Assembly (NCBI GenBank): GCA_038230395.1
Contig: JBBRNI010000005.1
Location: 834 to 64,833, forward strand
DNA from: Candidatus Saccharimonadales bacterium
GTDB taxonomy: Bacteria > Patescibacteriota > Saccharimonadia > Saccharimonadales > UBA4665
Direction: 5' to 3'
DNA length: 64,000 nucleotides
Shown: positions 4,279 through 34,640 of the stretch, one piece after another
How positions within the stretch are numbered: the first letter of the stretch is position 1
Layout of the letters: every line of letters starts with the position of its first letter
The notes under the pieces: model-generated
What the model was told of the DNA's origin: nothing
Seen by the model: only the letters and a program-made list of their open reading frames with translations
The model's database searches: none
Program-made: the position numbers and the translations under genes

Positions 4279-5211
4279 ATGAAGACTGAACTCATTCAAT
4301 TACTTGCGACCGATAAGCTAATGCTACCTGGCTTGCTATACACACCGGATAAACCTACCAAAAAAGCTGCTATTTGGTTACATGGCATGGGTGATAGCGG
4401 TATGTTCTATAATCCCAAGCGGATTAATGCTCTCGGTGCAGCGCTAACTGATCAAGGCATCGCATTTCTTAGTTTTAATAATCGTGGGGCGCATGATAAA
4501 AAGACACTGTCAATACAGGACGATAGCCTACCAAAAGCTGAACGCGACTTTCAAGGCGGCACTCACTACGAGTTAATCGTTGACTGTGTCAAAGACATAG
4601 ATGGCGCGGTTCAATTCTTGAAGGACAGAAAATATACCGAATTTTACCTAATTGGGCACAGCACAGGGGCAAACAAAATCTGTGTCTACAACCAACGTGC
4701 TGCCAAGAATCCATTTAGCAAATATGTCTTGGCTGGCCCCGGTGACGACAGCGGCTTGTTCTACTCAGAGCTAGGGGAAGCTTTGTTTACTAAAGCACTA
4801 GCCAAGGCCAAAGAACTCAAAAAATCTGGTAACAGACTGGTGATTATGCCAGAAGACAGTGGCATGCACCCGTTTAGTGCTCAGTCAGCCTATGACATTA
4901 TGAATCCCAACGGTGACTACAATACCTTTCCGTTTTACGAAGTTGCTACCAAGCGGCTTGGTACCAAAGCCTTATTTGAGGCCTACCGCAAGATCCGCAT
5001 TCCCATACTGACGGTTTACGGCGAAAATGATGAGTTCGCTTACACAGCTGGCACAGTCAGCGACGCCTTAATTATGCTTGAGGACAACACGCATGAAAGC
5101 ATAGTTAACGACTGCGGCTTCTTGACAATTCCGAATACTGATCACGGCTTTCACGGAGCGGAGGATACGTTCGCAAAAGCAGTGGCTGACTGGCTGGGCG
5201 GAAAGCGCTAG
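4279..5211 (+). CDS. Alpha/beta-fold hydrolase
   Basis: Nucleophile elbow GHSTG, an HG oxyanion-type motif (WLHGMGD) and a C-terminal DH pair (NTDHGFHG). Confidence 0.8.
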   Translation: MKTELIQLLATDKLMLPGLLYTPDKPTKKAAIWLHGMGDSGMFYNPKRINALGAALTDQGIAFLSFNNRGAHDKKTLSIQDDSLPKAERDFQGGTHYELIVDCVKDIDGAVQFLKDRKYTEFYLIGHSTGANKICVYNQRAAKNPFSKYVLAGPGDDSGLFYSELGEALFTKALAKAKELKKSGNRLVIMPEDSGMHPFSAQSAYDIMNPNGDYNTFPFYEVATKRLGTKALFEAYRKIRIPILTVYGENDEFAYTAGTVSDALIMLEDNTHESIVNDCGFLTIPNTDHGFHGAEDTFAKAVADWLGGKR

Positions 5212-5212
5212 T

Positions 5213-5947
5213 ATGACCAACCCCGATGAACAGCCGAGACCCTTCGCTGTCTTCGACATAGATGGCACAGTTATACGCTGGCAACTCTACCACGCCATCG
5301 TCGACGCTCTCCTGCGCCAGGGTTATATTGATGGCGAACGTTTCGAGGCGGTCCGTATCGCCCGTATGAGTTGGAAACGACGCGTCGGTAGTGATTCATT
5401 TAATGAGTACGAAGCTGAACTCGTCAAAGTCTTCAATGACGCGCTCAAAGGTTTACCAGTGAATATGCTCGAAATGGCCGCTCAAACTGTCTTTGGCGAA
5501 TACAAAGAACAAGTCTATGCCTATACACGCGATCTGATTCACGAACTAAAACAACAGGGTTATCTACTGTTTGTTATCTCTGGTTCGCCCTCGTTAATTG
5601 TCAAGAAACTAGCCGAATATTATGATTTTGATGACTATGCGGCCACTGAATACGTGCAACAGAACGGCTACTTCACAGGCGAAATAGATCAAACTATCGG
5701 CAAGAAGGGCGAATTATTACAGCAGCTCATGACCAAGCACAACCTGGAAACATCAGGTAGTATCGGTATTGGCGATAGTGAAGGTGATATCGCCATGCTA
5801 GAACTGTGCGAACGGCCGATAGCTTTCAACCCGAGCAAGGACTTGTTCAAGCATGCCCAAATTAATAAGTGGGAGATTGTGGTAGAACGCAAAAACGTTA
5901 TCTACAATCTTAGTGCCAAACAAGGGCATTACCATTTAGATAAATAG
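5213..5947 (+). CDS. HAD-superfamily hydrolase (subfamily IB, SerB-like)
   Basis: Motif I FDIDGTV and motif IV GDSEGDIAML, with a cap-domain-sized insertion between them. Confidence 0.8.
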   Translation: MTNPDEQPRPFAVFDIDGTVIRWQLYHAIVDALLRQGYIDGERFEAVRIARMSWKRRVGSDSFNEYEAELVKVFNDALKGLPVNMLEMAAQTVFGEYKEQVYAYTRDLIHELKQQGYLLFVISGSPSLIVKKLAEYYDFDDYAATEYVQQNGYFTGEIDQTIGKKGELLQQLMTKHNLETSGSIGIGDSEGDIAMLELCERPIAFNPSKDLFKHAQINKWEIVVERKNVIYNLSAKQGHYHLDK

Positions 5948-5962
5948 CTCGGAACCGTATCA

Positions 5963-6757
5963 ATGCAAGACTACTGGCTTAAACAACAACCCGATAAACC
6001 ACTCTACCCAGACTTATTGTGGAGCCGCCCAGAAAATAAGCTCCAAGCAGGTAAACTCCTCATTATTGGTGGCAATAGCCAAGGCTTCGCCGCGGCAGGG
6101 GAAGCCTTTGGTACAGCAAGCAAGGCAGGTGTAGGCACCGCGCGCGTCTTGCTACCTGTTAGCCTGCAAAAAACTGTTGGTCGTATTTTTGAGGTAGGTG
6201 AATACGCTGCCAGCACCCCGAGTGGTAGCTTTAGTAAAGCTGCCCTGGCTGAGTACTTAGACATGAGCCTCTGGGCAGATGGGGTATTGCTGGCAGGTGA
6301 TCTAGGACGCAATTCCGAAACCGCTATACTGCTTGAGTCATATCTCGACAAATATCCTGGTCAAGTCACATTAACTAGAGATGTCATTACGTACTTCGGC
6401 GAACTACCGACTGTGGTGCTGACTCGACCTAGAACGTTGTTGGTGCTCAGTATGTCACAATTACAAAAATTAGGTGTTAGCAGCCGTTTCACCATGGCCT
6501 TTACGCTGAGCATGGATCTGCTACGGCTCATTGAAAACTTACACGAGTTCACCAAACGCTACCCAATTGCTATCATCACCAAACACCACGATACGATCAT
6601 AGTTGCAGTGGATGGACTAATTAGTACGACCAAGCTCATAACCGACCTTAAGGTCTGGCGCTTGCTCACTGCTACTTACGCCAGTGTTTGGATGCTACAA
6701 AACCCTACTAAGCCGTTTGAGGCTTTGACTACGGCGGTTCATGAAGCCAGTCAGTAA
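5963..6757 (+). CDS. YjeF C-terminal / NAD(P)HX-dehydratase-like carbohydrate-kinase-fold protein (degenerate)
   Basis: LLIIGGNSQGFAAAGEAFGTASKAGVG resembles the N-terminal YjeF_C motif. The downstream kinase motifs are poorly conserved. Confidence 0.45.
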   Translation: MQDYWLKQQPDKPLYPDLLWSRPENKLQAGKLLIIGGNSQGFAAAGEAFGTASKAGVGTARVLLPVSLQKTVGRIFEVGEYAASTPSGSFSKAALAEYLDMSLWADGVLLAGDLGRNSETAILLESYLDKYPGQVTLTRDVITYFGELPTVVLTRPRTLLVLSMSQLQKLGVSSRFTMAFTLSMDLLRLIENLHEFTKRYPIAIITKHHDTIIVAVDGLISTTKLITDLKVWRLLTATYASVWMLQNPTKPFEALTTAVHEASQ

Positions 6758-6798
6758 GTGTCGCGTACTGCTCTAGTCAATGTCGTATACTACTACTT

Positions 6799-7890
6799 AT
6801 GCTTAGCAAAATAAATCGCGCCCATAAACTTGCGCCAATCTTGGCAATATCTGGCGTGATTATAGTAGGGTTACTACTGCTAAGTTTCTATTCATCTACG
6901 CATACGGACGTTAAGAGCGCTGCGAAATCTTCATATAATACGACGTTTCATTACAGCTGTAACACCGCAGACAAAACAAGCTTATCTTGCCAAGAGCAAA
7001 AGTACTCCGATATGACCAGCAGGCTGGGAGCAGTAGTCAGTTTCGCTGCACTTAAAAAAGCGTATAGCAGTGACGCGGCTACTAAAGCAAACTGCCATCA
7101 GATTACTCATGCCATCGGGCGTGCCGAAGCTGACAGTGTCAAGGATGTAGCCCAAGCCTACGCTCTGGGTGATAATTTTTGTTGGTCAGGTTATTATCAC
7201 GGCGTCATGGAATCAATTGTTATCCATATTGGAAGTAAAAAGATGAATGCCAATTTAGCGACTATCTGCGCGCCCCTGAAGGCACAAAAGCTGTATTCCT
7301 TCGCCCACTACAACTGCGTCCATGGGCTGGGACACGGCATCATGTACAATGACGGCAGCGAGCTTTTCACCGCCCTCAAAACATGTGATTTGCTTGAAAG
7401 CAGTTGGGAGCGTCAATCGTGCTACGGGGGTACCTTTATGGAGAATGAGATGGAAGAGGTCAATCCTGACCACACAACCGCTTACCTCAAAGCTGATGAG
7501 CCCATGTACCCATGTACGGCAGTCGATGAAACATACAAATACCAGTGTTATCTAATGCAAACTTCGCACGCGCTTAAGCTAGCGAACAGCGACTTCTCAC
7601 AAGTATTTACCGAATGCGCCGCGGTTGAATCAAACTTCGCGGCCGTCTGCTACCAAAGCCTCGGGAGAGACGCATCTGGCAACAGCATTAGTCAGGTTGA
7701 GCCAACAAAAACTAGCTGTATGTACGGCCCAGATCAAACGGCCCGCCAAAATTGCATTATTGGAGCCGTCAAAGATTTTGTTTCCTATTATCATAGCGAC
7801 CAGCAGGCAACACAGCTCTGTAACGCCCTAGATTCTTCATTGCAGCCAGTCTGCCAGACCACTACAGACAGCTACTACAAAACTTTGTAG
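6799..7890 (+). CDS. Membrane-anchored / secreted Cys-rich repeat protein, unknown function
   Basis: N-terminal TM or signal anchor (LAPILAISGVIIVGLLLLSF). It has 16 Cys, several in recurring C-[YVI]-x-G/H contexts (NCHQITHAIG, NCVHGLGHG, SCYGGTF, QCYLMQ, VCYQSLG, NCIIGAV). Confidence 0.6.
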   Translation: MLSKINRAHKLAPILAISGVIIVGLLLLSFYSSTHTDVKSAAKSSYNTTFHYSCNTADKTSLSCQEQKYSDMTSRLGAVVSFAALKKAYSSDAATKANCHQITHAIGRAEADSVKDVAQAYALGDNFCWSGYYHGVMESIVIHIGSKKMNANLATICAPLKAQKLYSFAHYNCVHGLGHGIMYNDGSELFTALKTCDLLESSWERQSCYGGTFMENEMEEVNPDHTTAYLKADEPMYPCTAVDETYKYQCYLMQTSHALKLANSDFSQVFTECAAVESNFAAVCYQSLGRDASGNSISQVEPTKTSCMYGPDQTARQNCIIGAVKDFVSYYHSDQQATQLCNALDSSLQPVCQTTTDSYYKTL

Positions 7891-8178
7891 CCACTGATAA
7901 TCGACTATCCACCAGCGTATTCCGGTGGGTTGTTCTGTTGCGGAAAGCGGCACTGGTACTCCCGTTCAAGTCCAGGGCATGTGGAGTACGAATCCAGAGC
8001 CCTTGCAGCTGACGGCTGACGTGAAGGTTGGTGCGGTTAGGGAGGCGTGGCATTACTCACTGAGCATGCGCCAAAATTGGTGCTCACGCAGTTGGGATGG
8101 TCATGGCCGCGGAGATGAATATAGAATGAGAATGCTGAGTCTTTTATTGCAAAAATCTAAGCACAAGTTCATACTCAG

Positions 8179-8427
8179 GTGCACACTATGAGTTCCAACG
8201 ATAGCTACATTGGCATCCTGCTTGAGGAGATCCGCGACCAGAACAAGGCCGTACTTGAAGCCGTTGGCGCAATGCAGCAACACGTGGCTACCATCCCGGC
8301 CCTGCATGAGAATCTCAGTGAACTCAAGGCTGACGTGAAAACCATCAAGGCCGCAGTCACCGCCACCAACGCCGATGTCTCAGGCTTAGACGGACGTGTG
8401 GCTCGGCTCGAGCAAGCGGCAACCTGA
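8179..8427 (+). CDS. Small coiled-coil protein, hypothetical
   Basis: 82-aa ORF (GTG 8179, or ATG 8188) with heptad-like sequence (LSELKADVKTIKAAV..RVARLEQ). A TTGCAA-17-CATACT promoter-like pair lies at 8147..8175. The ORF sits in a GC-rich patch, so coding status is uncertain. Confidence 0.4.
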   Translation: MHTMSSNDSYIGILLEEIRDQNKAVLEAVGAMQQHVATIPALHENLSELKADVKTIKAAVTATNADVSGLDGRVARLEQAAT

Positions 8428-8869
8428 CTTACAGCCCTAGGCGCCGACAGGAATCGGATCGTCCGCGGCAAGTAGCGGGAGCAACTGACTATTTGCTTCA
8501 GCGTCTAGCGCGTCAAATACCGCCTCAATCGCAACTTTAGTATCAGCGTGGTCTCTTCCTGCAATTGCAAGCGCATAGCAGAAGCGCTCGTAGCTAACTT
8601 TAGTTAACGGCGGGCCACGCACACTCCGTACTGATCAACCGGGAGACTATCTCGGAGCTTATTGACCGCGGCCGACACCTGGGTCCGACCGCCCCCCCGT
8701 GAGCGTCAACATCTGCACGCACCAAGTAACCCTTGAGAGAAACGCTCGAAACAACACAACAGAGGTGATCGGGAGAGCCAGGTCATTAGTTTGTCAGTTT
8801 GCAAGGTACCGAGCGGACACAAAAGCACCCCTGTTGTCAAGGGTGCTTAATGGTAATGGAAATCATTAT

Positions 8870-8880
8870 TGGTGGGCGAG
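8870..8880. repeat. Distal att-like direct repeat (copy of tRNA-Leu 3' end)
   Basis: Exact 11-mer TGGTGGGCGAG. With flanks, 15 of 16 positions match 13867..13882. Confidence 0.6.
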
Positions 8881-9001
8881 CTAGATAAAAGGTGGCACCG
8901 CTTTTTACCTTGTTTATACAGGACATACGAACGACTTGTCAGTCTAGGCTTCATGACGCGTGGTAGTCAGATTTACTACCCAGGCATTGAGGAGGTCGAG
9001 C

Positions 9002-9475
9002 ATGTTTAAACGCAACCGACCAGTAGGCGACTTTCAGACATCATGCCTACTTGACCAGGACACCTTCTACGACCGCTTTCTAAGTGATCTGAAGCACTGC
9101 AAACATGAAGCCATCATCGAGAGTCCGTTCATCACCAATCGACGACTCAACCAGCTCATGCCGACGCTGGAGAAGCTGAAGGCTCAGCGCGTCCGGCTGG
9201 TCATCAACACTAAAGATCCGGAACACCACGATGACGACTATTTTCGCACTGATGCTAGGCAAGCCATATCGCGGTTGCAACATATGGGAATCCATGTGCT
9301 GTTCACGGTCAGCCACCACCGCAAGCTGGCGATAATCGACCGCAAAATCCTATATGAGGGCAGTCTGAACATTCTATCTCAGAACGATAGCTGTGAGATC
9401 ATGCGCCGGATTGAATCAGTGCAGCTGGCCTGGGAGATGGCAGCGTTCATCAAGATTGACAGGTTTTTAAGATAA
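9002..9475 (+). CDS. Phospholipase D / HKD-family nuclease (Nuc-like, single HKD)
   Basis: HKD motif HHRKLAIID followed by EGSLN. A GAGGAGG Shine-Dalgarno precedes ATG 9002, which is Met15 of track ORF 8960..9475. Confidence 0.75.
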   Translation: MFKRNRPVGDFQTSCLLDQDTFYDRFLSDLKHCKHEAIIESPFITNRRLNQLMPTLEKLKAQRVRLVINTKDPEHHDDDYFRTDARQAISRLQHMGIHVLFTVSHHRKLAIIDRKILYEGSLNILSQNDSCEIMRRIESVQLAWEMAAFIKIDRFLR

Positions 9476-9489
9476 CGAGGTGTATAGTT

Positions 9490-9708
9490 ATGACTACTAT
9501 GAGCAATTACCACATTAGCGACGAAGACATTGAGGCGTCCATGCGCTACCTTAAATATCACGACCCGAAGCACGCCACTACGGCGGATGCCGAAAAGCTA
9601 CTTCATGACTTAAAGGCTGGTCACGCCAGAATTAGCGACCACGACCCAGCTGAGCTCGCTGAGCTACAAAAGGAAATTGATGGAGCAGCGCCCGAAGCGG
9701 ATGCCTAA
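9490..9708 (+). CDS. Small acidic hypothetical protein
   Basis: 72-aa ORF starting 14 nt after the HKD gene stop, on the same strand. No recognisable motif. Confidence 0.4.
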   Translation: MTTMSNYHISDEDIEASMRYLKYHDPKHATTADAEKLLHDLKAGHARISDHDPAELAELQKEIDGAAPEADA

Positions 9709-9926
9709 AAACCCAGAATATCGGTTGCCGTGACGCCGAACAGTTTAGCCAGCTTGGCAGTTGTGCCGCGCGAGATTTCATGCTCGCCTCGCTCTAGGCG
9801 AGCAACCGTATTCGTGCTGACGTCCAGCTTTTCAGCTAAGCCAGCCTGGCTCAGACCTTTTGCTAGTCGAAGATCTTTGATGCGCTTGCCGGTGGTGAGT
9901 AAGGCTGCTTTGTCTGAATCTTTCAT
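9705..9926 (-). CDS. XRE-family helix-turn-helix transcriptional regulator
   Basis: Classic HTH_3 sequence LRLAKGLSQAGLAEKLDVSTNTVARLERGE. The start overlaps the hepT stop by 4 nt. Confidence 0.85.
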   Translation of the reverse strand: MKDSDKAALLTTGKRIKDLRLAKGLSQAGLAEKLDVSTNTVARLERGEHEISRGTTAKLAKLFGVTATDILGF

Positions 9927-10258
9927 ACAATAGCTAAAACAAGCTCACGAAATGATGCAAAATGCTCACCAGCCACGACTTCCCAAATGATCTCGTAATC
10001 GACGTTGCCATACTCGTGGGCGATGATATTGCGCATGGCGATCGCTTGGCGCCACGGCAGCTCGGGGTGAGCATCTTTGAAGCCCTCACTGAGTGAGCGC
10101 ATATGTTCACCGATGGCTAACACGCGCAGGGCAGCTGCATCGCGCAGATTCAAGTCTTCGAGAAATGCTTGCTTGTCAGTAGGCACATTGGCTATCGTCA
10201 GATTCAGTAAATCCAGCACTTCTTTGAGTAGGACGGCGTCACGTTCCTCGAAACTCAT
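9923..10258 (-). CDS. hepT: HepT-like (DUF86) toxin RNase
   Basis: RX4HXY motif present as RNIIAHEY. Its size and its position after the MNT gene are typical. Confidence 0.85.
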   Translation of the reverse strand: MSFEERDAVLLKEVLDLLNLTIANVPTDKQAFLEDLNLRDAAALRVLAIGEHMRSLSEGFKDAHPELPWRQAIAMRNIIAHEYGNVDYEIIWEVVAGEHFASFRELVLAIV

Positions 10259-10560
10259 AATATAACGACTTTCTCTCTGTCGATAAATGGTTTGATGTGA
10301 CGCGACAAGGCCCGCTCTGATACGACATCTACTCGCTTGCCACTGCGCGATTCTAGGATGTCTTTTAATTCAAAGTGCTCGAAGAGCGATACGCCTGGGG
10401 CGTATCTGACGAGAATATCGACGTCACTATCGGCTCCGGCTTCGCCGCGGGCGTACGAACCGAACACGCTGGCAGCCAGAACATTGTGCTCCTGTAATAA
10501 TGCCTGTAGGTCAGCTAGGGCGATCGGTAGTTGCAAATCTTGGGCTTTCATAGCTATCAT
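10255..10560 (-). CDS. mntA: MntA-like minimal nucleotidyltransferase antitoxin
   Basis: GSYARGEAGADSDVDILV, i.e. the GS-X10-DXD nucleotidyltransferase motif. It overlaps hepT by 4 nt. Confidence 0.85.
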   Translation of the reverse strand: MIAMKAQDLQLPIALADLQALLQEHNVLAASVFGSYARGEAGADSDVDILVRYAPGVSLFEHFELKDILESRSGKRVDVVSERALSRHIKPFIDREKVVIL

Positions 10561-10778
10561 TATAACCTAAAAACCGTACAACCTACTCCTCTAGGGGAGA
10601 CGCACTCGATGAACGGGACTGACAGCTGTACGGCAATTCCATCTCAATAGTGAGATAAGGCTACACGTAACGTCAATATTAGACTATTTTAATAACATTC
10701 TTGACGAAAATATAAATTAGCAGAAGCATACGAGCAATATTAGGTTATTAACGGTGGTGGACAATAGTAGGAACAATT

Positions 10779-13364
10779 GTGGCAACCTCACTCTCCTGGA
10801 TCGTCGAATACATCGTCCTCACTAGCCTACTAATCTTATGTGCCGACATTCTCCGAAGACACAAAAACTTCCAGCATTACAAAAAATTAAACAGCGTTAT
10901 TCTTGAGTTGACGCCGCCAGCCTTCGCGCGCAAGACGCCACTAGCGACCGAGCAGCTGTTCCAGACGCTGCATAGCCTCGGCTCAGCGCAGACACTCAGG
11001 GAGCGCCTGCTCGACCGTGGTAATCGATATTCATTCGAGGTCGTGTCGTCACGTTCGGCAGGCATTCGGTTCATGGCCCGGATGAAGCAGTGCGATGTTG
11101 CAATATTTCAGCAACAGCTGGCAGCCTACATGCCGGATGTGAAGTTTGCTGTAGTGCCGGACTATCTGCCAGAGCTAGTGGCAGGCAAGCAAACAACGTT
11201 AGCTTGTTATGAATTCAAGCAAGGCGGGCACTTTGCTTTTCCACTAGCGGCGCACGACGCACTCATACAGCACGACCCGATTGCATACATAACTGGCTCG
11301 ATGACTAAGTTGGCGCCGAGTGAGCTAATTGCTTATCAAGTTGTCTTGTCACCGGCAAACAAGCGTGAAGTTACCCGGATTCGCAACAAGCTGTACTTAG
11401 GCAAGGACCCTGATTTGTACGGCAAAAATCGTACGCTTGGTAAAAAAGCACTGGTCTTGATGCTACAGATTCCGTTCATCATACTAAGCGGAATACTCGG
11501 CTTGATTGGCAGCTTTTTTGATGACACGTCGTATCACAGCAAATCGAATGCCTATAAAGCGCCAGTCGTGCCGCAGCGCGCACCTGAGCATCAAGAATTA
11601 CTAGCCACGCTCGGAGACAAGCTCAAACAGCCACTATTTCACGCTAGTATCCGCGTTTTAGTCGTTACAGACGATCGCATGAAAGCCGGGCAGAGCATCC
11701 AAGGCCTCAGCTCAGCGCTGGGATTGTTCAGCGTGCCAGGCTTTCAAAGTTTGATCGCCAAGCGCAATTTCCCAAGAAGCAAGATGAATGTACACCGACT
11801 GCATAGCTTTGCCAGCCGGTGGCTACCGATACTGATGCGCCATAGCAGTATCGTGTCCGTATCGGAAGTCGCCAGCTTGTACCACTTTCCGTTCGGCGAG
11901 ACAGCTCGACCAGAGAATTTGGCGCGGTCGCAAAGCCGGACATTGCCAGCACCATTCGCTTTGAAAGCCAGGGCTGATGAACAAGCCTTCGACGTCGTCC
12001 TCGGTGAAAACCAACACCACGGCAGCACCAATCCGATTGGCTTACTGGCCAGCGAACGCCAGCAACATGTTTACGTCATTGGTGGTACCGGCAACGGTAA
12101 AACTACAATGCTGCAATATGCCATTGTCCAGGACATGCGAGCGGGTAAAGGTGTGGCCGTGATCGATCCGCACGGCGATATGGCTCAGACGCTGCTAACC
12201 TACGTGCCGAAAGACCGGATAGACGATGTCGTCTACCTCAATCCCGTTAATATTGATTACCCAATTGGTATTAACGTCTTAGAGCTTCCGACTGGCCTGA
12301 GTGGCAGCCAGCTGCTACTTGAGAAGGAGCGTGTGACTGAGGCTGTCATTTCCATATTACGCAAAGTCTTCTCTGACGATGCTAACAATGCACACCGCAT
12401 CGAAGGCATCTTGCGCAATGCCATTCATACCGCTATAAGCGTCGAGGTTGCCACGTTGTTTACCGTCCTCAAGATTCTGCGTAACACTAACTACCGCAAA
12501 ACCGTTGTAGCTCAGCTCACCGACGAACACCTGCGCGATTTCTGGAAAGAAGAGTTCGGCCAAGCCGGTGACATGCAGCGCGTTAGCCTAAGCAAGGGTG
12601 TCACCAACCGCATCGACCGCTTCCGCAGCTCAAAGCCAGCCGAGCGGATGCTCGAGCAAGCCCATTCAACAATTAGCTTCGAGGACATCATCGATTCTGG
12701 CAAGATTCTGATCTGCAACTTTGCTGAGGGCAACTTAGGCGAAGATACTTCGGCACTGTTTGGCACGACTATTCTAGCCAAGCTTAAGCTGGCTGCTGAG
12801 CGCCGAGCACGCATGTCGGCGGAAGACCGCCAACCATTCTATCTCTACGTCGATGAATTCCAGAACTTCGCGACCACACCGTTCGTCAAGATGCTGTCTA
12901 GCTCACGCAAATACAAACTATTCTTGGCGCTTGCACAGCAGTCCACCAGCCAGCAGGATGAGCAGCGCCTTACCGAGACGATTCTATCTAATGTCAGCAC
13001 CGTCGTCTGCTTCCGTACCGGCAGCCCAGCTGACGAGCAGTTGATCCTGCCGCGCTTTAGCCCGTTCATCGAGCAAGGGGAAATCGGCAACCTGCCAGCC
13101 TATCATTACTACATCCGTGTCCAGGCGCAGGAATCGCTGGAGCCGATGTCGGGCGTCACACTCCAGCTGGATGATGACTGGAGCGAAGATGTTGCTGACG
13201 CAGTGGCCGAAGCTTCTCGGAAGAACTATGCTTTGCAGTATGTAGAAATGCAGCCTGAACAAAAGCTTGCCAAGCCTAACACGGGCAGGGCAGCTAAAAC
13301 TACCCATAAAAAATCTAGTGGCATGAAAAAGCCGGTCAAACACAAATCAAAAGCCACAAAGTAA
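10779..13364 (+). CDS. Type IV coupling protein-like (TraD/VirD4/HerA-FtsK superfamily) membrane ATPase
   Basis: Two N-terminal TM segments. Walker A GGTGNGKTT followed by VIDPHGD. Walker B-like FYLYVDEFQNF followed by SSRKYKLFLALAQQS. Lys-rich C-terminal tail. Confidence 0.7.
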   Translation: MATSLSWIVEYIVLTSLLILCADILRRHKNFQHYKKLNSVILELTPPAFARKTPLATEQLFQTLHSLGSAQTLRERLLDRGNRYSFEVVSSRSAGIRFMARMKQCDVAIFQQQLAAYMPDVKFAVVPDYLPELVAGKQTTLACYEFKQGGHFAFPLAAHDALIQHDPIAYITGSMTKLAPSELIAYQVVLSPANKREVTRIRNKLYLGKDPDLYGKNRTLGKKALVLMLQIPFIILSGILGLIGSFFDDTSYHSKSNAYKAPVVPQRAPEHQELLATLGDKLKQPLFHASIRVLVVTDDRMKAGQSIQGLSSALGLFSVPGFQSLIAKRNFPRSKMNVHRLHSFASRWLPILMRHSSIVSVSEVASLYHFPFGETARPENLARSQSRTLPAPFALKARADEQAFDVVLGENQHHGSTNPIGLLASERQQHVYVIGGTGNGKTTMLQYAIVQDMRAGKGVAVIDPHGDMAQTLLTYVPKDRIDDVVYLNPVNIDYPIGINVLELPTGLSGSQLLLEKERVTEAVISILRKVFSDDANNAHRIEGILRNAIHTAISVEVATLFTVLKILRNTNYRKTVVAQLTDEHLRDFWKEEFGQAGDMQRVSLSKGVTNRIDRFRSSKPAERMLEQAHSTISFEDIIDSGKILICNFAEGNLGEDTSALFGTTILAKLKLAAERRARMSAEDRQPFYLYVDEFQNFATTPFVKMLSSSRKYKLFLALAQQSTSQQDEQRLTETILSNVSTVVCFRTGSPADEQLILPRFSPFIEQGEIGNLPAYHYYIRVQAQESLEPMSGVTLQLDDDWSEDVADAVAEASRKNYALQYVEMQPEQKLAKPNTGRAAKTTHKKSSGMKKPVKHKSKATK

Positions 13365-13417
13365 AAGCTGACTTCACGCACCGCATCGCCTTCAGCAACG
13401 ACCACATAGACGAGCTA

Positions 13418-13870
13418 ATGGCCGCGGTGCAGGTTGTGTGGGGCAAGCGCCAAGTAGAACTAAACAAGGAGGAGGTAGCCGTAGAAACAAACCTCAAGGG
13501 TCTCTACGCCCAAGCAAAGGCCATTATGGACAAGATAAAGATGCTAAGTAGCCAAACAGTAATTAAGTATATGGAGGACGAGCTGATGCAAGTCGAAACT
13601 GAGATCGAGAACATCAAAAACGTTACCAAACAAAAAACCGCCATTCCAGCGGTCAATATTACGGTCGTTACGGCCTGCGTACGATACTTTCTGCAACACC
13701 TAGACTACTTGTTGTTACAGCAGAGTGATCCTGAGCAAAAAGCCAACTTTTTTGGCCTGATTTACGAGAAAGTGCCCACTTATCAAGAAATGGTTTCTGT
13801 AACCGAAAATTCCGGAGAATTAACAGGGGTAAGTGAACTTTTTTTAGCTCGAAACATTGAAAGGTACTTA
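13418..13870 (+). pseudogene. Recombinase/integrase C-terminal remnant (family unresolved; resembles the coiled-coil C-terminal part of large serine recombinases)
   Basis: The frame is open only from 13319, after an in-frame TAG at 13316. There is no start codon before 13418, so there is no room for a catalytic domain. Track ORF 13418..14002 reads straight through the antisense of tRNA-Leu, so its last ~45 codons are not genuine. Confidence 0.35.
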
Positions 13871-13871
13871 C

Positions 13872-13958
13872 TGGTGGGCGAGGGGGGACTTGAACCCCCA
13901 CGAGCTTGCGCTCACAAGATTTTGAGTCTAGCGTGTATACCAATTTCACCACTCGCCC
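13872..13958 (-). tRNA. tRNA-Leu (anticodon CAA)
   Basis: 87 nt folded by hand. Acceptor GGGCGAG/CTCGCCC and D stem GTG/CAC. Anticodon loop CTCAAAA, with one U-U mismatch in the anticodon stem. Variable arm GAGC-GCAA-GCTC, T arm GGGGG-TTCAAGT-CCCCC, encoded ACCA. Confidence 0.9.
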
Positions 13959-14094
13959 GCGCTACTAGATCTGTGCATTTCATTACGCTTACGATTCAGT
14001 AGGCCACCAGGGGCGTATTGTACTATACTTAGGAGGTAAGATCCAAGTACACATACTCGCAAAGCCTGGGTACTTCTTATTTGTACTGTTTATT

Positions 14095-15354
14095 ATGGCA
14101 ACAAACCCGCTTACTCCAATCGAACCAAACAAATCAGCCCTGGCGGCGGATGTTATTCGTGATAAAGTCGCCCGACTCTATAGCAGTGAGCCCGACGCCG
14201 CTACCGAAGAACTTGAAGCCGAAGCAGCTACACACCGCAGCCCCCATCAACAGTTCATGTATGACCTGAGTGCCTCTGGCAAAAGTCTAGCAACAATCCA
14301 GACCGAATGGCACAGCTACTACCTGTCTTTGTCTGAGCACGAGCGGCGGCAAGTATGGCAAGAATTTTACGCTAGTCAGTCTAGCGTTACTGGGATCAAG
14401 CCAATTGAAGTAGCACATGTCGAAGCGCAACATAAACATGCTGTCGTCCCAAAAGGACATCGCAAGCCAACTAAAACTAGGTCTCTCAAAGACTTAAGAA
14501 GCCCAGGAGCAATTCAGGCGACAATCCGCGACACTGTGACCGGAGGCGGTAAGTTAGAAGTTAAGCACCACGTTCAGTCGCTATTATTTGGGCTTGGAAT
14601 GGGTAGTATCGTGGTTGTTATATTCTTATTTAGCTTCTTTAACGAGGTTATTATCGCGCCGTTCATCCAACCAAGTCGAGTTGCCGCCGCTACGCCACTT
14701 ATTATTAGTGCCGACAGTGTGGCGCCATCCAAGACGCCCGAAGTAATTATTCCTAAAATCAACGTAGAAATACCGGTAAATTATAGTGAGTCCTCGACGG
14801 TGGAAGCTAATATAGAAAACGACCTGGAGAGTGGAATCGTTCATTACCCAGGCACAGTTGTGCCAGGCGAGAATGGCAACGCCGCATTTTTTGGGCACAG
14901 CAGTAATAACATCCTCAATCCTGGCAAATACAAATTCGCTTTCGTTCTGCTCCATACCATGGTGCCTGGTGACACCTTTTACTTGACCTACAGCGGTAAA
15001 GTGTTCGTCTATAAAGTAATAAGTAAAACCGTCGTTGATCCGAGTGATGTCGGTGTATTAGGTCCAGTGCCTGGTCAGACAGCCACAGCCACGCTTATTA
15101 CCTGTGACCCACCCGGCACAAGCCTTAAACGATTAATTTTGGTAGGTCAACAGATTAGTCCAGCAATAACTGGTAACTCTACGCCGGCAGTTACAGCTGT
15201 ATCGGCAGCCCCAGCCACAGCGGCTTTACCAGGCAACGGACCGACGCTACTAAACCGAGTTTCCAAGACAACAACAGGCAAGATAATCATGGCCGTGATT
15301 ATACTACTAGCTATTGGCCTTGTAATTCGCTGGATCCGCAAGCCATATCGGTAA
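14095..15354 (+). CDS. Sortase-family transpeptidase with long N-terminal region and C-terminal TM
   Basis: Catalytic TLITCDPPG (TLxTC) and an upstream FFGHSSNN His. TM segments flank the catalytic domain. Confidence 0.85.
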   Translation: MATNPLTPIEPNKSALAADVIRDKVARLYSSEPDAATEELEAEAATHRSPHQQFMYDLSASGKSLATIQTEWHSYYLSLSEHERRQVWQEFYASQSSVTGIKPIEVAHVEAQHKHAVVPKGHRKPTKTRSLKDLRSPGAIQATIRDTVTGGGKLEVKHHVQSLLFGLGMGSIVVVIFLFSFFNEVIIAPFIQPSRVAAATPLIISADSVAPSKTPEVIIPKINVEIPVNYSESSTVEANIENDLESGIVHYPGTVVPGENGNAAFFGHSSNNILNPGKYKFAFVLLHTMVPGDTFYLTYSGKVFVYKVISKTVVDPSDVGVLGPVPGQTATATLITCDPPGTSLKRLILVGQQISPAITGNSTPAVTAVSAAPATAALPGNGPTLLNRVSKTTTGKIIMAVIILLAIGLVIRWIRKPYR

Positions 15355-15377
15355 GGCTTAGAAGGTCAAAAAGCCTT

Positions 15378-16874
15378 CTACAAGTCCGATGGTATCAACA
15401 GAAGAGTATTGGTTAAAATAGCTCCATTACCAGATGCTACAAAGCTATAAACGTTTTTATAGTCAGGTGTAAAAAACGGAGTGGACGAGGGGCTACCTGG
15501 TATAAAAGAACGTTGATTTGTTTGATCAAAATCAAGAATTTGGATCATTGCAGATCCCTCCGATGGACTAACACCCGTATAGGTTAGCCTATTACCATCC
15601 ATCCACTTTACATGCGGCTGATTCGAATTAATTGAAACTTTGGTCGCCAGATCATAGTTGTACCCATTTTTATTTTCTAAATCATAAATGGCAACTTGGT
15701 TCCCGTGCTCCGCCAAGATGTACTGCGAATTACTGGAAAAACTTTCGTAGTCAGGGCCTCTCACACGCAATACCTGGATAGGTACAATCACTTGGGCCGG
15801 ATGTACTGCTAGTTGAGATGCGGGATCCTTGTAAATGTAGACCTTATTTTCATCAACACTGCTGGCGACAACATACGGAGTATTGCTATAGTTTGCCAGG
15901 TCAACAATGTAGCGCGTACTGGCTGGGAAACTCCGCAGTAGAACGGTGCGACTGCCAGTTTGTTGCTTGAGTAGCACCTTACCAGCTGGCGCATCAACGC
16001 TAGTAAAGTACACTAGCGTACTATCTCCATAAGATTTATAAGCTAAAACGTCACTGATAAGACTTACAGCCGCAGGAGCTTTGAGTGATGCGGTTCGCAA
16101 ATTATGGTCAGCAGAATTATAAAGGTAATATTGGTCATACTTCTTATTGCTTAAGGCTACTGCGGCAGTCGTGTTCTCGAGTGTTTTAGTAAGATTCAGT
16201 GATTGGTCAGGATTCTCACGGTCAAGCATAATATACTCGACAGTAGTATCAGCAGTGTGTTGCAAAAGGAGATGTTGATTATCGTCGGCCCACTCCACAA
16301 CCTGCCAGTTCTCACTGGTCGCTGCTTTAGTCGCTATATCGATTGGTAGACTAATTGTTAGGGCTAGTTTGGTTGGGTTCTTCAAGTCATATACAGCAAA
16401 ATTATCAGGGCCAGCAATATCATTGGTTACTAACCAGCGGCGATCCGGACTCTGAGAAGTTAGTCCAGGCATGGTCGCTAAGGGCAGGAGCGTCGTTGTT
16501 TTGACCACTTTGGGAAGCAAGAGCGGATAATCATAGTGGGTAACGCTGCCGCCATTTACCTCAATTGTGCGCTGCCAATCTTGGTAACCCGGCCTTGACA
16601 TACGCACTCTGTAAATACTAGCCGGTAACGCTACCCGGGCGTTAGTGTCTGATGTAGCGCGCTTACCATTAAGGAACACTTTGGCAGGGTTAGGACTGCT
16701 AGAGAAAAAAACTATGCCGTTTTGGATTACTGTACCGTTTTTATCGATACCAAAACCATAGGCCTGGTAGACCAGCACAACAGTAGCAATAATTATAGCA
16801 ACTGACATGCAGACGTAGCCAAACAGTAATAAAATGCCATGTCGGCGTTGTTTTTGAGGGTCAAGATAATCCAT
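15378..16874 (-). CDS. PEGA-domain envelope protein with beta-propeller-like C-terminal region
   Basis: N-terminal TM, then a PEGA-like segment (AKVFLNGKRATSDTNARVALPASIYRVRMSRPGYQDW). Confidence 0.7.
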   Translation of the reverse strand: MDYLDPQKQRRHGILLLFGYVCMSVAIIIATVVLVYQAYGFGIDKNGTVIQNGIVFFSSSPNPAKVFLNGKRATSDTNARVALPASIYRVRMSRPGYQDWQRTIEVNGGSVTHYDYPLLLPKVVKTTTLLPLATMPGLTSQSPDRRWLVTNDIAGPDNFAVYDLKNPTKLALTISLPIDIATKAATSENWQVVEWADDNQHLLLQHTADTTVEYIMLDRENPDQSLNLTKTLENTTAAVALSNKKYDQYYLYNSADHNLRTASLKAPAAVSLISDVLAYKSYGDSTLVYFTSVDAPAGKVLLKQQTGSRTVLLRSFPASTRYIVDLANYSNTPYVVASSVDENKVYIYKDPASQLAVHPAQVIVPIQVLRVRGPDYESFSSNSQYILAEHGNQVAIYDLENKNGYNYDLATKVSINSNQPHVKWMDGNRLTYTGVSPSEGSAMIQILDFDQTNQRSFIPGSPSSTPFFTPDYKNVYSFVASGNGAILTNTLLLIPSDL

Positions 16875-32307: not shown

Positions 32308-32360
32308 GGTGGGCGAGAGAAGATAGGCAGTCAATTACTTGACAAAATCTCTCGCCCACC
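32308..32360. repeat. 53-nt perfect-stem inverted repeat built from the tRNA-Leu 3'-end sequence
   Basis: GGTGGGCGAGAGA (32308..32320) pairs with TCTCTCGCCCACC (32348..32360). The loop contains a GTCAA-TTAC-TTGAC sub-hairpin. The right arm plus the next A reads CTCGCCCACCA, which is the tRNA-Leu 3' terminal 11-mer. Confidence 0.8.
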
Positions 32361-32415
32361 AGCGCCATTTCACCACTCAGGTGCGTCTCGATCACCCGGG
32401 ATCATCCTTAGGTCT

Positions 32416-34565: not shown

Positions 34566-34640
34566 TGGTGATCTCGCGGAGAATCGAACTCCGATTGCCA
34601 GGATGAGAACCTGGCGTCCTAACCGTTAGACGACGAGACC
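34566..34640 (-). tRNA. tRNA-Glu (anticodon CTC)
   Basis: 75 nt folded by hand. Acceptor GGTCTCG/CGAGATC and D arm GTC-TAACGGTTAG-GAC. Anticodon stem CCAGG/CCTGG with loop TTCTCAT. T arm CGGAG-TTCGATT-CTCCG, encoded CCA. Confidence 0.9.

Follow-up and report, generated by a model that had tools for sequence, protein, structure and literature searches.

A probable remnant of a serine-recombinase integrative element at the 3' end of a tRNA-Leu gene in a Saccharibacteria genome

The locus described here lies on contig JBBRNI010000005.1 of a Candidatus Saccharimonadales genome (assembly GCA_038230395.1), of which one stretch of 64,000 nucleotides (nt), referred to below as the window, was analysed. 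The host belongs to Saccharibacteria (TM7), and the 80 best genomic relatives of the sortase gene flanking the locus are all from metagenome-assembled genomes, mostly labelled Saccharibacteria or Saccharimonadales. The subject is an island at positions 8870-13882, next to an intact tRNA-Leu(CAA) gene on the minus strand (13872..13958; ARAGORN, Rfam tRNA score 57.1 bits). The island carries, from left to right, genes for a small HKD protein and a 72-aa product, three minus-strand genes (xre, hepT and mntA), a gene for a type IV coupling protein (T4CP), and an open reading frame (ORF) that adjoins the tRNA gene. Taken together, the evidence makes it very probable that the island is an internally deleted, non-autonomous remnant of an integrative element inserted by a large serine recombinase (LSR), with the 3' end of the tRNA gene as the predicted integration target (attB).

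The 11-nt sequence TGGTGGGCGAG is found on the plus strand, exact and in the same orientation, at both 8870-8880 and 13872-13882. It is the complement of the tRNA-Leu 3' acceptor strand together with ACCA, and reads CTCGCCCACCA on the tRNA strand. The island follows directly downstream of the intact tRNA gene, and its far boundary is formed by a direct repeat of the tRNA 3' end. This is the attL/attR geometry of tRNA 3'-end integration that a preliminary description of the locus had proposed; with flanks included the two copies match at 14 of 16 positions (TTAT/TTAC, the 11-mer, C/G), and not at 15 as given there. As judged by shuffles, the 11-mer is expected 0.01 times per window, in keeping with its predicted rarity, and base composition gives a probability of 0.0008 that a copy on the same strand falls within 5 kb downstream of the tRNA 3' end. 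The proximal copy (13872..13882) would mark an attL-type junction, consisting of the end of the recombinase gene, the core and the tRNA body, and the distal copy (8870..8880) an attR-type junction, consisting of the outside flank, the core and the left arm of the element.

A hairpin followed by a U-tract, predicted to act as an intrinsic terminator, is located on the minus strand 21 nt past the distal core as read on the tRNA strand (8817..8848; an 11-bp stem, then UUUUGUGU; fold z -4.0). It was missed by a consensus terminator scan and was found by folding, which revealed no comparable hairpin at the present tRNA-Leu 3' end (z -1.6). A terminator past the distal repeat and none at the present tRNA end fit a displaced original tRNA terminus, and the hairpin probably served tRNA-Leu before the insertion. 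Terminators are also present just outside the distal repeat of three related elements (L118, L093 and L108).

The identity of the ORF adjoining the tRNA gene (13319..13870, plus strand) was resolved only by an exhaustive profile search. Scans against Pfam and NCBIfam gave no recombinase match, and a word-indexed homology search returned only the ORF itself and one 146-aa protein, P0002. A two-sequence profile searched against 1.84 billion representatives gave 468 matches, 225 of them at E<=1e-10. The full-length matches are 546-600 aa long, and Resolvase (PF00239) and Recombinase (PF07508) domains were recognised by Pfam in four of them (P0153, P0170, P0226 and P0256); the zinc ribbon (PF13408) is shown by one partial homologue, and the N-terminus of one full-length homologue matches the catalytic domain of the TP901-1 integrase (3BVP). 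In tblastn, full-length LSRs match the window only at 13355-13900, residues 393-553 of P0153 being 34% identical to 13373-13855 (E 2e-20), and in a multiple alignment the ORF begins just past the CxxC...YHC zinc ribbon. The ORF is therefore predicted to encode the last ~165 residues of an LSR, comprising the coiled-coil and C-terminal region, which retain homology to bona fide LSRs, with ~390 residues (~70%) lost, among them every catalytic and DNA-binding domain ahead of the coiled coil. Truncation of a recombinase-like gene had been recognised earlier, and it is the extent that differs, as loss of only the N-terminal half had been assumed. The catalytic domain with its nucleophilic serine (PF00239) was not detected in the ORF by Pfam or by tblastn of full-length LSRs, nor the Recombinase domain (PF07508) or the zinc ribbon (PF13408) by alignment. 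Given the absence of the catalytic domain, the ORF is a gene fragment and not a functional LSR.

As previously described, this frame is open from 13319, has no start codon before the ATG at 13418, and reads through the tRNA antisense (to 14002). That it is still open for 184 codons (p 7e-5) suggests a recent deletion. P0002, encoded at locus L087, is a second remnant of the same ORF; it is part of a 330-nt scar between aroE and tRNA-Gln(CTG), abuts the 3' end of this tRNA, and reads into the tRNA antisense in the same frame. The sequence to the left of the proximal core in the window (13826-13850, GVSELFLA) is conserved with L087 in both DNA and protein. A tyrosine-recombinase island was also considered and was rejected because neither such a gene nor a remnant of one is present in or beside the island. 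Separately, a ~70-codon remnant of the same LSR family was seen beside tRNA-Glu(CTC) at L055 (18006-18224). The tRNA-Glu(CTC) gene of the window itself (34566-34640) is matched by the tail of P0153, in the tRNA antisense only, and no element adjoins it.

Full-length members of the LSR family were collected by a metagenome scan with a seven-sequence alignment, which gave 80 loci, chosen by similarity to a tRNA-Glu-type LSR. In 12 of these the LSR locus ends at a contig end. Wherever sequence past the LSR gene was available (65 of 65 loci), the opposite strand carries a tRNA gene, and the LSR ORF terminates within the antisense of that gene, with an overlap of 21-610 nt (mode 40 nt). Nine tRNA species are used, namely Glu(TTC), Glu(CTC), Gln(TTG), Gln(CTG), Arg(CCG), Arg(GCG), Lys(CTT), Lys(TTT) and Asp(GTC). 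As the LSR ORF has no stop codon before the att core in any of the 65 loci, its last 7-200 codons come from the tRNA antisense when the element is integrated, and with the attP core inside the end of the ORF, integration would swap the C-terminal tail of the protein. The locus L118 represents a nearly intact 7.9 kb element with an 18-nt repeat of the tRNA-Glu 3' end at both ends. Its genes are arranged in the order HKD, 69-aa ORF, SLFN/AlbA-type ATPase, XRE, cargo, Replic_Relax and LSR, the last of these called as two ORFs of 472 and 80 aa. The core is 9 nt in L093 and L108, and 6 nt in L126.

The left end of the island is also shared with intact elements. A putative left-arm (P') motif, GATAAAAGGTGGCACC, lies at 8884..8899 and is identical at 14 of 16 positions to GATAAAAGGTGGAACA of L126, an element with an intact LSR at tRNA-Arg(CCG). 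Inside the distal repeat the window has CTA-GATAAAAGGTGGCACC and the far end of L126 has TGGTAC-GCTCAGTG-GATAAAAGGTGGAACA, which places the motif 14 nt from the TGG of the tRNA-end copy in both cases; at fixed register, the p value of this match is about 3e-7 to 3e-6. A related motif, AGGTGGAAC, is present in L128 and L152. The first gene of the island (8960..9475, plus strand; likely start ATG 9003) is predicted to encode a small single-HKD protein of the PLD-like, Nuc type (Pfam PLDc_2, E 7e-10). It is 59% identical to the HKD protein of L126, and homologues of 43-59% identity are found at the left end of five LSR elements (L093, L108, L118, L126 and L128). The 72-aa ORF (9490..9708, plus strand) travels with it, as homologues follow directly after the HKD gene in L126 and L128 (38-41% identity, tblastn), and in L118 a 69-aa ORF without a tblastn match occupies this position. 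Next is the XRE-family helix-turn-helix regulator (9705..9926, minus strand; Pfam HTH_3, E 2e-14), which is the last gene of the MntA-HepT-XRE operon, and L118 and L128 have XRE genes in the same position, after the 69-aa or 72-aa ORF.

The remaining two genes of this operon would constitute a MntA-HepT type VII toxin-antitoxin pair (9923-10560). The product of the first (9923..10258, minus strand; Pfam HepT-like, E 6e-18), a putative RNase toxin, has the Rx4HxY motif as RNIIAHEY, and that of the second (10255..10560, minus strand; Pfam NTP_transf_2, E 1e-12), a putative nucleotidyltransferase antitoxin, has the GSx10DxD motif, GSYARGEAGADSDVD; the genes overlap by 4 nt. The cargo of related elements is rich in defence-like genes, which parallels this pair. 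These include genes for reverse transcriptase, SLFN/AlbA-type ATPase and AIPR (L104 2382-3947, L118 4733-6226, L126 1526-3238, L094 4891-10445), and also methyltransferase- and restriction-like ORFs that were judged from sequence only.

In three further loci of the family (L094 3830-3860, L152 2780-2830 and L157 3730-3770), the end of the LSR gene and the core are followed by non-tRNA sequence. In L152, the AGGTGGAAC left-arm motif comes after the core, and L094 runs on into restriction/defence-like genes. A check for circularity found no terminal overlaps in these three contigs, which are tentatively regarded as excised (attP) or plasmid forms.

The occupancy of the tRNA-Leu(CAA) site was examined in relatives. 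The order HAD hydrolase, 264-aa gene, gap, tRNA-Leu(CAA) and sortase was found in 61 Saccharibacteria loci, with a gap of 4-6812 nt that is <=48 nt in 18 of them, which are more distant relatives and count as empty sites as well. None of the island genes was found at the loci of 80 relatives, save for weak matches to an 82-aa ORF that lies outside the island. The larger gaps contain a mixed set of ORFs (ABC transporter, IS1595, Fic, Zeta, ParE, patatin and PLD). For 48 gap ORFs from 17 relatives, no recombinase or integrase is among the 25 listed of the 34 Pfam families matched, and hence the gaps do not reveal how they were filled. The 363-aa gene on the left flank of the island (6799-7890) is a member of a widespread Saccharibacteria family and led to three empty sites, L168, L169 and L170, in which the 363-aa gene, tRNA-Leu(CAA) and the sortase gene are contiguous and the island genes are absent. 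L168 is 92% identical in nucleotide sequence over window positions 4279-7981 and has 133 nt between the 363-aa gene and tRNA-Leu; the corresponding values are 80% and 636 nt for L169, and 72-77% and 117 nt for L170. The tRNA-Leu(CAA) sequence at L169 and L170 is the same as that in the window. Empty sites were thus found in relatives as anticipated, except that the DNA missing from the closest of them begins at 7976 and not at 8881.

An atypical composition of the island had likewise been anticipated and was observed. Its GC content is 0.504, as compared with 0.475 +/- 0.008 in 5-kb background windows (z 3.6; no background window as high), and its tetranucleotide distance of 0.240 exceeds the background maximum of 0.237. 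The GC content at third codon positions (GC3) is 0.52-0.60 in island genes and 0.41-0.50 in the flanking core genes.

Several observations weigh against insertion by an LSR at this tRNA gene. The 11-mer is not unique to the two junctions, since a third exact copy, unmentioned in the preliminary description, is present at 32351-32361 on the strand opposite to the TGGTGGGCGAG copies. The 80 metagenome loci, picked by their similarity to a tRNA-Glu-type LSR, include no family LSR at tRNA-Leu(CAA). In the 10 kb available, exact repeats of >=10 nt are absent from most intact loci, which indicates that the length of the repeat varies; upstream of 64 intact LSRs, only the repeat of L118 is at the tRNA terminus, and nine other matches at random offsets were counted as noise. 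On the left side, homology to L168 stops at 7975-7981 and not at 8869, so that the flank beyond the distal repeat is not the native flank of L168 type, and the window lacks the native terminator seen in L168. Finally, recombination at this site is known here by inference from sequence.

The third copy of the 11-mer, together with the variability of the site in relatives, the lack of recognised integrases among the gap ORFs and the fact that 11-nt repeats are common in any 9 kb region, would suit a different account, in which the repeat is a coincidence, illegitimate recombination filled the hypervariable spot beside the tRNA gene, and the boundaries have nothing to do with the recombinase fragment. 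This is very improbable, as it is specifically the tRNA terminus that is repeated, with the correct orientation and side (p about 0.001), the 16 nt next to the repeat match, in register, those at the left arm of an intact element (p about 1e-6), and the HKD module comes next as it does in five intact elements. It would also leave aside the terminator just outside the repeat and the location of the LSR family at tRNA 3' ends in all 65 loci.

The break in homology with L168 bears on a second possibility. The 894-nt segment to the left of the distal repeat (7976..8869) is absent from L168 and is thus also extra; it includes an 82-aa coiled-coil ORF (8179-8427, GC3 0.66) and a terminator of its own, and no similar DNA was found in the fetched loci except in L001, which is from the same sample. 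It could be the stump left by a previous insertion, or else DNA specific to this strain and missing from L168. If it is a stump, the whole of 7976-13871 would be foreign and the island composite, the LSR element having entered a tRNA end already rebuilt by the previous insertion. L168, with 92% identity, reaches the tRNA gene 42 nt past the equivalent of window position 7975, its terminator included, and the GC content is raised in 6758-8869 (0.503) and is 0.52-0.53 in 1-kb windows over 7501-9000. Repeats of the tRNA-Leu 3' end are present at this site in L048, L038 and L024, all starting at the CCA end, and the 4-6812 nt range of the gap in the 61 relatives points the same way. Nevertheless, neither a tRNA-end copy nor a recombinase remnant was found near 7976, the segment has no homologue in the fetched loci apart from a small ORF family, and its loss by L168 is equally possible. 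A tandem origin is therefore considered rather unlikely, and it would refine the explanation by LSR insertion and not replace it.

Some features of these tRNA-Leu loci are recorded here in their own right. Inserts of 148-152 nt edged by 19-nt tRNA 3'-end repeats are present at tRNA-Leu(CAA) in L048 (9479-9821) and L038 (4921-5088); they look alike by eye, each has its own terminator, and that of L048 is tandemly duplicated with a 171-nt period. These inserts could represent miniature elements, or scars left by extreme deletion. In L024, a 10-nt tRNA-end repeat lies 895 nt from tRNA-Leu. In three relatives (L168 11193-11240; L169 ~11650-11700; L038 5045-5100), a long terminator hairpin follows tRNA-Leu, with a stem that takes in the CCACCA end of the tRNA (CCACCAACTAAATAAGACC...GGTCTTATTTAGTTGGTGG), and hence the tRNA 3' end and the terminator overlap structurally. 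Relatives of the 82-aa ORF (37-43% identity) occur in L005, L025, L035 and L044, twice as tandem pairs, and sit upstream of the HAD gene, away from the tRNA site. The only Logan contigs found to encode the flanking proteins of the window are L001 (window 4955-9169) and L002 (window 13930-16161), from run SRR19962015. They break in the HKD gene and in the tRNA-Leu gene, respectively, which is consistent with branching of the assembly graph at the island and is uninformative alone.

The three best non-self matches to tRNA-Leu in the window, apart from the island repeat, cluster at 32308-32378. They are the CTCGCCCACCA copy at 32351-32361 on the plus strand, a 10-nt complement at 32308-32317, and GAGTGGTGAAAT (tRNA positions 5-16) at 32367-32378 on the minus strand. 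The first two pair as a perfect 12-bp hairpin with an inner stem-loop (fold z -6.1), which resembles an acceptor-stem minihelix ending in ACCA and is situated in a 600-nt gap between a fn3/dockerin gene and a GH26-like gene. The cluster could represent a tRNA-Leu pseudogene in scrambled form, or else an old att scar.

The largest gene of the island (10779..13364, plus strand) encodes a full-length VirD4/TraG-like T4CP of 861 aa with a DUF8128 N-terminal membrane domain. It was recognised by Pfam (TrwB_AAD_bind, TraG-D_C and T4SS-DNA_transf), NCBIfam giving only sub-threshold TraD/VirD4 matches, and the translation includes Walker A (GGTGNGKT) and Walker B (YVDEFQ) motifs. The family comprises >1430 homologues of ~860 aa. 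T4CP homologues are found upstream of the LSR, on the element side, in 20 of the 41 loci with >=5 kb there, as compared with none of 27 loci on the chromosome side, downstream of the LSR (Fisher p 4e-6), and as judged from this distribution the T4CP is predicted to be part of the element backbone. The gene identities given earlier (HKD, small ORF, mntA-hepT-xre and T4CP) were upheld by Pfam. The view of them as generic accessory material with an orphan T4CP was not, since the T4CP, HKD, 72-aa and XRE genes recur in the element family and are thus predicted to be recurrent parts of it and not random cargo.

The junction between the T4CP and LSR genes indicates how the LSR gene was probably truncated. 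Two database proteins are T4CP::LSR fusions that represent two independent deletions; P0198 joins T4CP residues 85-602 to the last 80 LSR residues and tRNA antisense, and P0158 joins T4CP residues 1-167 to an LSR portion that begins with the zinc ribbon. In the window, homology to LSRs sets in at ~13355-13373 and the T4CP stop codon is at 13364, which points to a third T4CP-LSR deletion, with loss of the LSR N-terminus and of the intervening region. In relatives this interval is 3-6.5 kb, and 41 of 61 loci have a homologue of a Replic_Relax-like ORF <=1.5 kb upstream of the LSR. When five of these ORFs were scanned, three reached the Pfam Replic_Relax cut-off and two fell short. In the window, no Replic_Relax-like gene was found (best E 0.015, outside the island), and hence no relaxase that would class the island as an integrative and mobilizable element (IME); likewise, no VirB4-like gene that would indicate an integrative and conjugative element was found in the island or the 64 kb window, nor was a second T4CP found in the window. 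At L148, a VirB4 fragment and an M23 hydrolase precede the T4CP.

A further, probably decayed, element of related kind was seen at L083/L084 (10001-20515). There, a T4CP homologue 54% identical to that of the window lies ~6 kb upstream of a Replic_Relax gene and an LSR split into two or three ORFs, with a DUF6119 gene and a helix-turn-helix gene on the other side of the T4CP. The LSR is only distantly similar to the window family, and direct BLASTP of the window remnant against the C-terminal piece of the split LSR in L084 was not significant.

The proposed history of the island is as follows. An LSR would have recombined the attP site of its element with the tRNA-Leu 3' end (attB). The attP site would have been located where the gene for the LSR itself ends, immediately ahead of the HKD gene, and attP and attB would have shared the 11-nt core CTCGCCCACCA, within which the crossover is placed, so that the tRNA was restored without change. 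The original core would have been displaced, together with the terminator past it, to 8870-8880, 5 kb away. A later deletion, reaching from the stop codon of the T4CP gene to codon ~390 of the LSR gene, would have removed the catalytic, recombinase and zinc-ribbon domains together with the DNA between the T4CP and LSR genes, which in relatives includes a Replic_Relax-type gene. Both att junctions, the HKD/72-aa/XRE module, the MntA-HepT pair, the intact T4CP gene and the LSR tail would be what is left.

Preservation of both arms and both cores, and of intact ORFs for the T4CP, HKD and toxin-antitoxin proteins, also raises the question of whether the remnant, in which even the LSR frame is open, is still mobile in trans, with the cognate LSR of another element (and a directionality factor) excising and moving it in a satellite-like manner. 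Such mobility is improbable. No other LSR of the family was found elsewhere in the 64 kb window by tblastn, the window has no relaxase-like gene, and no tRNA-Leu-specific LSR is among the loci examined. Moreover, a second copy of the island was not found, the exact T4CP product is absent from the assembly index, and the T4CP protein cluster has one member, on one contig.

Taken by itself, the island is an object of a familiar type, namely a decayed integrative element that occupies a hypervariable tRNA hotspot. It resembles tRNA-targeted genomic islands and IMEs of Firmicutes, for example the streptococcal IMEs (PMC5357655), in its insertion at a tRNA 3' end, in the short direct repeat that rebuilds the tRNA, in the location of the integrase gene next to it, and in having its own coupling protein, a non-canonical relaxase-like gene (in the intact relatives) and decay to immobile remnants. 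In those IMEs, however, tRNA sites are used by tyrosine integrases (Tyr_8), and serine integrases disrupt protein-coding genes by inserting within them (PMC5357655). In the present family, in contrast, tRNA 3' ends are used by a serine recombinase, and the coupling protein is VirD4-like with a DUF8128 N-terminal domain and is not TcpA.

Like the LSRs of TP901-1, A118/LI, Bxb1, phiC31 and CcrAB, full-length members of the family have a Resolvase domain with an RVS(T/S)xxQ serine motif, a Recombinase domain, a zinc ribbon (CxxC...YHC), a coiled-coil C-terminal region and short cores of variable length. Unlike them, the family is very divergent (Pfam E values of only 1e-6 to 1e-10; no match in a PDB profile search with the seven-sequence family alignment) and consistently targets tRNA 3' ends, and the window copy consists of the last ~165 residues only. 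In archaeal integrases of the SSV1 type, which are tyrosine recombinases with a tRNA target, attP is inside the integrase gene and integration splits this gene into two non-functional parts. The present family is similar in that the core is within the recombinase ORF and the target is a tRNA gene, but only the extreme, unconserved C-terminal tail would be exchanged and the enzyme would stay whole.

A 2025 survey of type IV secretion systems (T4SS) in Patescibacteria reported 5,713 VirD4-like T4CPs in 2,918 genomes, of which 148 are near virB4, and few relaxases; integrases, recombinases and tRNA sites are unmentioned (PMC12102498). The T4CP of the window is of the same VirD4 kind, is, like most of those counted there, not beside virB4, and has no MOBscan-type relaxase nearby. 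It is inside an element with both att junctions defined, and in related loci it is linked with an LSR and with Replic_Relax-family genes and, in one case, with a VirB4 fragment and a cell-wall hydrolase. No description of serine-recombinase/tRNA elements in Saccharibacteria or the wider candidate phyla radiation was found in the literature searched, and the LSR family is apparently undescribed. The elements occur in Saccharibacteria and on metagenome contigs with Patescibacteria-type coupling proteins, and their LSRs would insert into tRNA 3' ends. It is conceivable, though held with less than even confidence, that integrative elements of this sort make up a large undescribed class in Saccharibacteria, and probably in other Patescibacteria as well, of which the window island would be the first member with both boundaries defined. 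The class would have a divergent LSR at the 3' ends of at least 10 tRNA species, an attP core in the end of the LSR ORF, frequently a VirD4-like T4CP and a Replic_Relax gene, and sometimes T4SS genes.

Serine integrases need no host factors, and in organisms for which very few genetic tools exist, LSRs whose natural sites lie in conserved tRNA genes might be used for integration. The Replic_Relax-family gene may encode a relaxase. If the elements do form such a class, many of the thousands of 'orphan' T4CP genes of Patescibacteria would belong to mobilizable or conjugative elements, and the Replic_Relax genes would be candidates for relaxases unseen by MOBscan-based surveys. The mobile elements of the ultra-small, host-dependent Patescibacteria are poorly charted, and the role of their widespread type IV secretion genes, in conjugation or in host-bacterium interaction, is debated. 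The present locus puts a T4CP inside an element with both ends readable from the sequence, and as its relatives tie the T4CP to a site-specific recombinase and relaxase-like genes, the question of conjugation becomes testable.

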